DNA of 64,000 nt. It comes from Escherichia coli (lineage in GTDB: Bacteria; Pseudomonadota; Gammaproteobacteria; Enterobacterales; Enterobacteriaceae). A program made the position numbers and the translations under genes. Numbering within the stretch: position 1 is the first letter of the stretch; each line of letters starts with the position of its first letter. Below the pieces are notes generated by a model. That model searched no databases. It worked only from the letters and a program-made list of their open reading frames with translations, and was not told the origin of the DNA. This document shows positions 44,054 to 44,310 of this stretch, piece after piece. The stretch lies in the NCBI RefSeq assembly GCF_041886205.1, contig NZ_CP169029.1; one strand, written 5' to 3'.

Positions 44054-44310
44054 TCTAAAATCCTCGGAGATGTGATCTGCCCGGCATTAAACCGCACAGA
44101 TATAAAAGTGAAAAAGGGGGCCATATGCAGGCCCCCTAACCAAACGTGTACTACCTGGTCTATAAGGGCTCTCCCCCTTCATATTTCGCGCCGCAGATGC
44201 GTTGTCTTCGCTCGCTCATCCCGGTCACTTACTGATGTAAGCTCCTGGGAATTCTCGAGCTTGCCGCCTTTCTGCAACTCGAACTATTTTGGGGGAGTTA
44301 TCAAGCCTTA

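Follow-up and report, generated by a model that had tools for sequence, protein, structure and literature searches.

An rpsB-tsf spacer of Escherichia coli that is very probably a composite of an ancestral attenuator spacer and an ERIC/IRU insertion

The genes for ribosomal protein S2 (rpsB) and elongation factor Ts (tsf) lie next to each other on the minus strand of a 64,000-nucleotide stretch of Escherichia coli DNA (contig NZ_CP169029.1, assembly GCF_041886205.1), which is referred to as the window throughout; the features of the region are collected in Table 1. An earlier note on this DNA, made from the letters alone, had placed the two genes 257 bp apart within one operon, and this is exactly what is found at 44054–44310 on the minus strand, as it is in K-12 MG1655 (end of rpsB at 190599, start of tsf at 190857). 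The spacer sequence is 100% identical to that of strain 6EVA and differs from that of K-12 MG1655 at 2 of 257 positions, both of them within the ERIC element described below. The rpsB stop codon TAA (44313–44311) is followed by a second in-frame TAA (44310–44308), and these tandem stops, TAATAA (44308–44313, minus strand), are kept in all aligned Enterobacterales. Upstream of rpsB, the match to the t44/tff leader is present in all six Enterobacterales outgroup loci and in the E. coli that carry a shorter form of the spacer; it is the sole t44/tff (RF00127) match of the Rfam scan (45064–45150), with none in the spacer. In the spacer, that scan returned CssrA plus sub-threshold matches only, e.g., SAM-III with 15.7 bits vs a gathering score of 45.

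Table 1. Positions of the features in and around the rpsB-tsf spacer, in window coordinates.
Feature	Position	Strand	Basis
t44/tff RNA (RF00127), structured rpsB leader	45064–45150	minus	84.6 bits vs gathering score 44; annotated tff in K-12
rpsB (ribosomal protein S2), 241 aa	44311–45036	minus	ORF list and sequence; protein 100% identical to annotated E. coli records
rpsB-tsf intergenic spacer, 257 bp, long allele	44054–44310	minus	sequence; in 4094/5426 complete E. coli genomes
ERIC/IRU element, 127 bp	44171–44297	minus	inverted repeat I1; consensus match; homology limits; absent in short allele
CssrA, Rfam RF02798, "chromosome-encoded Shigella sRNA A"	44116–44225	minus	136.6 bits vs gathering score 93, model positions 1–111
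Ancestral hairpin 2 (ACCAGGU...GUUUGGU)	44138–44160	minus	folds, outgroup alignment, Rfam CssrA consensus structure; conserved in Enterobacterales
Intrinsic attenuator: hairpin AGGGGGCC-UGCAUAU-GGCCCCCU (44137–44115), then U-tract UUUUCACUUUU	44104–44137	minus	terminator scan, fold, published 3' ends
Hairpin 4 (AUCUGUGCGGUUUAAUGCCGGGCAGAU), between attenuator and tsf ribosome-binding site	44075–44101	minus	folds
tsf Shine-Dalgarno GAGGA (44065–44061) and start codon ATG (44053–44051)	44051–44065	minus	sequence; invariant in outgroup alignment
tsf (elongation factor Ts), 283 aa	43202–44053	minus	ORF list, annotated E. coli records

The spacer had been called unusually long, and this is borne out among the matches listed: its 257 nt compare with a median of 107 nt in 79 other species, a sample of broad taxonomic spread without close Escherichia or Salmonella relatives, and with 116–149 nt in Enterobacterales. 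The view that it holds no credible ORF is likewise upheld, as three chance ORFs of 31–32 aa overlap the spacer and none has a Shine-Dalgarno sequence; two of the three rely on sequence that is absent from a quarter of E. coli genomes. Small proteins encoded in the spacer were considered as candidates and rejected on the grounds that these 31–32-aa ORFs are without ribosome-binding sites and dependent on ERIC sequence. Folding of the minus-strand spacer RNA, which the note had proposed as a check, gives a strong structure with an MFE of −101.9 kcal/mol vs −75.1 ± 4.7 kcal/mol in dinucleotide shuffles (z about −5.5, i.e., −5.8 and −5.3 in two runs), and 0 of 200 shuffles folded as well. The several GC-rich inverted repeats that the note had seen are present; they come, like most of the structure, from ERIC, which contributes −59 of −102 kcal/mol. 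Folded by itself, ERIC reaches −59.0 kcal/mol with z = −7.6 relative to shuffles, and the spacer minus ERIC reaches −46.3 kcal/mol with z = −2.8, which is far less exceptional.

ERIC/IRU/RU-1 elements are said to have been described by Sharples & Lloyd 1990, Hulton et al. 1991, De Gregorio et al. 2005, and Wilson & Sharp 2006. The largest inverted repeat of the spacer (I1) has 27-nt arms at 44171–44197 and 44271–44297 and contains the motif CCAGGAGCTTACATCAGTAAGTGAC; the element is an imperfect palindrome with 7-bp terminal inverted repeats (CTCCCCC/GGGGGAG) and folds as a long hairpin. An ERIC consensus of 127 nt was derived from 95 unique core-motif copies in metagenome contigs, with copies of the rpsB-tsf locus removed, and it contains both standard ERIC-PCR primer sequences exactly. 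The spacer element aligns with it gaplessly at 100 of 127 positions (79%), the median identity of the other copies being 78%, and carries the primer sites with three mismatches (ERIC2) and two mismatches (ERIC1R). Conservation across the 95 independent copies begins at 44297 and stops at 44171. In replicons of Salmonella, Citrobacter, Klebsiella, Rahnella, Pantoea, and Yersinia, sequence with 75–82% identity to these 127 bp is found, and the homology is confined to them. Altogether 300 plasmid or chromid records from 10 or more genera gave ERIC matches, copies in metagenome contigs stand in 85 distinct contexts, and 5425 of the 5426 complete E. coli genomes carry spacer-like sequence, at a median of 10 places each. 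Because of its 127-bp length, the gapless 100/127 match, a consensus that holds both ERIC primers, and its occurrence in multiple copies and in six other genera, 44171–44297 is identified, on sequence grounds, as an ERIC/IRU element; the traits of the family found here are thus the length of ~127 bp, the consensus core, the palindrome with terminal repeats, the dispersed copies, and the filled and empty sites. This element, which adds 123 extra bp, had been missed at first reading; the unusual length put first in the note stems from it.

Several smaller observations concern the element itself. A private substitution at window position 44246 (minus strand), where the ERIC fold is unpaired, gives the spacer an A (CCCAGGAG) in place of the G of K-12, O157:H7, and six other long-allele sequences. 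Tandem ERICs, i.e., two to three copies ~120–140 bp apart, occur at several metagenome loci (L089, L094, and L134). The Vibrio antisense RNA family V_AS5 matches ERIC end to end (44175–44298, minus strand) at a sub-threshold score (25.5 bits vs 96, E = 0.0026); the match probably reflects ERIC-like sequence in Vibrio, and the V_AS5 family itself may be an ERIC-like repeat. ERIC/IRU elements have been reviewed by Delihas, and none of the papers covered by the literature search links ERIC with rpsB.

The 257-bp spacer is one of two alleles in E. coli. The long allele is found in 4094 and the short allele in 1330 complete genomes, together 5424 of 5426; the short allele was counted by a junction-specific 46-mer, which occurred once per genome and always on the chromosome. 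In roughly one E. coli genome in four, the match to the spacer was limited to the 118 nt nearest tsf. Strain p11A has a spacer of 134 bp, in which ACGCTCGTAC (10 bp) stands where the long allele has 133 bp. Short-allele strains include S88 and an O25b:H4-ST131 strain. In the outgroup alignment, the short architecture is common to Enterobacter, Klebsiella, Yersinia, and Photorhabdus, and the ERIC site is empty in all outgroups examined; because this architecture is shared so, the ERIC-free 134-bp allele is considered, from the alignment, to be the ancestral one. It has a first small hairpin right after the rpsB stop codon (AAGGC-ACGCUCG-UA-CGAGC-CCUU), then a second hairpin, and then a GC hairpin with a U-tract. 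ERIC appears to have entered at the apex of the first small hairpin, where the ancestral site has a TA at the centre of the 10 bp replaced by the insertion. In the long allele, one TA stands 1 nt from the left end of ERIC (44300–44299), and the right end is without TA. The junctions are without a clean TA duplication, from which we infer that the site was remodelled afterwards and that the insertion history comprised more than one simple event.

Nine long-allele spacers have six variable sites, and all six fall inside ERIC, the remaining 130 nt having none; if variation were uniform, such an outcome would have a probability of (127/257)^6, about 0.015, in a small sample picked for divergence. 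This indicates that ERIC may be less constrained than the ancestral sequence around it. The O145 strain RM8988-C1 (NZ_CP035770.1) has the short allele and O157:H7 the long one, so the distribution of the alleles may not follow one clean phylogenetic split, and recombination is possible. A second species with the element in the same spacer was considered, as plasmid CP044307.1 aligned at 79%, and was dismissed when this record proved to be a noisy, frameshifted E. coli assembly. At positions 1495–2135 of CP044307.1 (pC27A-2, 149 kb), a garbled rpsB-spacer-tsf is found in which perfect and scrambled stretches alternate; this copy looks like an artefact of noisy long-read assembly.

The GC hairpin in front of tsf belongs to the part of the spacer that both alleles share. 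It is reportedly also credited, as the rpsB-tsf attenuator, to An et al. 1981 and Aseev et al. 2008. The hairpin quoted in the earlier note (44137–44115), with gggggcctgcatatggccccc at 44136–44116 on the minus strand, is the top terminator-like site of the region in the terminator scan, with a stem of 8 pairs (7 of them G-C) and a 7-nt loop, followed by TTTTCACTTT; its fold has −18.1 kcal/mol. The GC-rich stem stands directly before UUUUCACUUU on the transcribed strand, as an intrinsic terminator should, and together with the run after it, TTTTCACTTTT, the hairpin fits the intrinsic-terminator consensus. K-12 positions are converted as 190600 + (44310 − window position), so that 190800 corresponds to window position 44110, in the U-tract. 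A K-12 3' end at 190800 is given in the Term-seq tables three times with the label "orphan" (Adams et al. 2021). SMRT-Cappable-seq (Yan et al. 2018) places a TTS at the same 190800, on transcripts from the rpsB start site 189712; it is labelled "novelTTS", as RegulonDB still had no rpsB-tsf terminator in 2018. Of the M9 reads, 232 end at 190800 and 906 pass, and in rich medium 63 end there and most pass; please note that these libraries were size-selected and that the rich-medium sheet seems to have two columns swapped (Yan et al. 2018). Northern work names "the attenuator in front of tsf" and has about one third reading through it, i.e., about two thirds terminate (Le Derout et al. 2010, PMC2834685). 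The termination efficiency thus differs by source, about two thirds by Northern vs 7–20% of the long reads from size-selected libraries, and both are partial.

The 44137–44115 hairpin and its U-tract are a genuine attenuator, of the intrinsic type as judged by their sequence and fold. The Term-seq check that the note had suggested has, in published Term-seq and SMRT-Cappable-seq, the outcome of a discrete 3' end at K-12 190800 with read-through; what the note described as a known partial terminator tuning S2 relative to EF-Ts stands for the quoted hairpin, with its 3' end at 44110 in two independent datasets, and falls for the length of the spacer, which is ERIC-derived. In the broad sample, among the matches listed, terminator-like sites occur in 40 of 79 rpsB-tsf spacers vs 3.6 in shuffles, and a hairpin of the GGGGCC...GGCCCC type ~50 nt past the stop codon recurs in Enterobacterales, Pasteurellaceae, Aeromonas, Shewanella, and Vibrionaceae; as judged from these comparisons, the attenuator appears ancient and conserved. 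It works from the ancestral 134-bp spacer and is independent of the long structure. In fold predictions, the terminator keeps a pairing probability of 0.97 in the long and the short allele alike, however the ERIC 5' arm is masked. Antitermination, in which the ERIC 3' terminal repeat AAGGGGG would pair with the descending arm of the terminator (repeat I3), was modeled and rejected on thermodynamic grounds, with a predicted −14.7 kcal/mol for the duplex vs −17.9 kcal/mol. Downstream of the attenuator, the arms of hairpin 4 (44075–44101, minus strand) vary among Enterobacteriaceae species with complementarity kept (alignment A2), which suggests a conserved structure. For a tsf promoter in the spacer, the consensus scan, which is insensitive and misses the known rpsB promoter, found none, and by eye there are weak candidates only; capped 5' ends at 190705 (window 44205, right arm of ERIC) and 190794 are given without read counts in SMRT-Cappable-seq (Yan et al. 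2018).

The one annotated RNA family of the spacer, CssrA, spans the boundary between the two parts. Its interval starts in the middle of ERIC and comprises the ERIC 3' arm, hairpin 2, and the attenuator hairpin. The CssrA model scores 53.6 bits in short-allele E. coli and 35–42 bits in the outgroups, all below the gathering score of 93, so the family as defined would exist only where ERIC is present. Peng et al. 2011 (PMC3071730) reported a band of ~110 nt on Northern blots of S. flexneri 301; the 3' end was taken from a terminator prediction and the 5' end was calculated from the band size and not mapped. Table 1 of that paper names map/rpsB as the neighbours of cssrA, and the Rfam model maps to rpsB/tsf; the former is probably a labelling slip.

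Most simply, CssrA could be the trimmed, stable 3' end of the terminated rpsB transcript. The alternative, an independent small-RNA gene that is driven by a promoter of its own within ERIC, ends at the attenuator, and acts in trans, is improbable in our view. It can draw on the report of Peng et al. 2011 (PMC3071730) and on the existence of a curated Rfam family, but the 5' end in that report was calculated from a band size, and many strains lack the mobile repeat that forms the 5' half of the RNA. An RNA running from the capped 5' end at 190705 to 190800 would be 96 nt long, which speaks for such a gene, and an ERIC-internal start site at 190705 is possible; this start is, however, listed without figures of read support, no −10 element is seen by eye upstream of 44205, and a sigma-70-like promoter was not found by the scan (the insensitive one that misses the known rpsB promoter). 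The interval also sits in one of the most heavily transcribed operons, so that termination followed by trimming of the 3' fragment is the simpler origin of the RNA. High abundance of the capped ends at 190705/190794 would speak for CssrA as a primary transcript or for a promoter close to tsf.

Taken together, the spacer is very probably a composite of an ancestral attenuator spacer and an ERIC insertion. The ancestral spacer of ~134 nt would have consisted of a hairpin past the rpsB stop codon, a second hairpin, the GC hairpin with U-tract, and a hairpin before the tsf ribosome-binding site. The GC hairpin and U-tract would act as a Rho-independent attenuator at which some RNA polymerases stop at 44110, giving monocistronic rpsB mRNA, while the remaining polymerases would read through into tsf and on to pyrH-frr, so that one promoter would yield S2 message in excess of EF-Ts message. 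In the lineage of most E. coli and Shigella, an ERIC/IRU miniature mobile element (127 bp) would have landed in the apex of the first hairpin; the insertion would have swapped 10 bp (ACGCTCGTAC) for 133 bp, nearly doubling the spacer and placing a long stable hairpin upstream of the attenuator. CssrA would then result from cleavage of the terminated rpsB transcript inside the ERIC hairpin, with the hairpins that follow shielding the fragment. Analysis or cited data back the identity of ERIC, the polymorphism of the locus, the short allele as the ancestral one, the place of the 3' end, and the partial read-through. That the whole 257-nt spacer is one dedicated regulatory or processing structure evolved in place, which was the implicit view of the earlier note, is extremely improbable: the strong overall folding signal and an operon with known differential expression would suit such a structure, but half of the spacer is a dispersed repeat with ~10 copies per genome that is also found in other genera, and 1330 E. 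coli genomes as well as all outgroups have the attenuator without this half. The presence/absence polymorphism and the identity of ERIC refute the single in-place structure.

Within the composite, ERIC could be either a passenger or co-opted. We consider it quite likely that ERIC is a tolerated passenger, its neutrality being inferred, because a quarter of E. coli lack it, it is more variable than its surroundings, and it leaves the terminator undisturbed in prediction. Co-option, in which the hairpin alters the decay or processing of rpsB mRNA (through entry of RNase E/RNase III or protection from 3' exonucleases), seems rather unlikely. Its attraction lies in the long imperfect duplex of −59 kcal/mol that starts only 13 nt past the rpsB stop codon, in the high frequency of the long allele, and in the discrete ~110-nt RNA that accumulates in Shigella with its calculated 5' end inside ERIC; moreover, according to the Delihas reviews, co-transcribed ERICs of Yersinia change the stability of upstream transcripts in an orientation-dependent manner that involves an RNase E site. 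Against it, all sampled within-species variation is inside ERIC, the quarter of E. coli without ERIC includes the very successful ST131, and no folding effect on the terminator is predicted. The orientation is a further point against: same-sense ERIC copies are not clustered on stop codons (13 of 60 within 20 nt vs 27 of 55 in the opposite sense, among 85 contexts), and it is the opposite-sense copies that pile up there, many at −3 to +1. The rpsB-tsf ERIC belongs to the orientation class that is not tied to stop codons, though it lies 13 nt past the rpsB stop codon. The stop-codon orientation class is reportedly the one linked to destabilisation in the primary Yersinia ERIC paper. If ERIC were co-opted, the S2:EF-Ts ratio would be re-tuned in the 75% of E. 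coli that carry it. The wider proposition, that ERIC is not neutral in that it both alters the processing or stability of the rpsB message and creates a stable CssrA of ~100–110 nt from half a mobile element and an ancient attenuator, is distinctly unlikely; if it held, the 75%/25% split would be a natural polymorphism in the S2:EF-Ts ratio or in a MITE-born sRNA.

With ERIC read as a tolerated passenger, the composite would explain why the rpsB-tsf spacer of K-12 has twice the usual length, and its main value is one of annotation hygiene: a curated Rfam "sRNA", CssrA, would be half mobile repeat and half operon attenuator, confined to the strains that carry the insertion, and the attenuator would be ancient and conserved while ERIC is dispensable. 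The 4094/1330 split also offers a natural experiment on the effect of an ERIC hairpin in an essential, highly expressed operon. Earlier work has described each of the three components, i.e., the ERIC family, the attenuator of rpsB-tsf, and CssrA; the CssrA-ERIC link and the allele split, which we did not find stated in the papers covered by the literature search, are small additions.

The known systems to which this locus can be compared are four. Like ERIC/IRU/RU-1 elements in general, the rpsB-tsf copy has 127 bp with a gapless 79% match to the consensus, primer sites, a palindrome, and 7-bp terminal repeats, and it is intergenic, co-transcribed, multicopy, and present or absent between strains. 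The consensus ends in TATACCC/GGGTATA, in contrast to CTCCCCC/GGGGGAG in the rpsB-tsf copy (44291–44297 and 44171–44177), in which both terminal repeats have changed so that the pairing of the terminal stem is kept and strengthened. Unlike a typical ERIC, this copy is without a clean TA duplication and replaces 10 bp of its target, and its setting is the tip of a pre-existing hairpin in an essential ribosomal-protein operon. CssrA (PMC3071730) is matched here over its full length above the gathering score, with coordinates equal to those of the published 110-nt interval; the family, as seen from the rpsB-tsf site, would be a chimera of the mobile ERIC 3' arm and the ancient attenuator, which neither Rfam nor PMC3071730 remarks on. 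Among the internal attenuators of other ribosomal-protein operons, the t1 terminator of rpsO-pnp is alike in being intrinsic, in standing right after a ribosomal-protein gene, and in its partial read-through into a translation-related gene, and unlike in that an RNase III site or a second promoter was not found documented for rpsB-tsf in the papers covered. The rpsB-tsf attenuator of PMC2834685 is the same element as the one described here and without a difference, i.e., a GC hairpin and U-tract behind a single upstream promoter, giving monocistronic rpsB and bicistronic rpsB-tsf transcripts.
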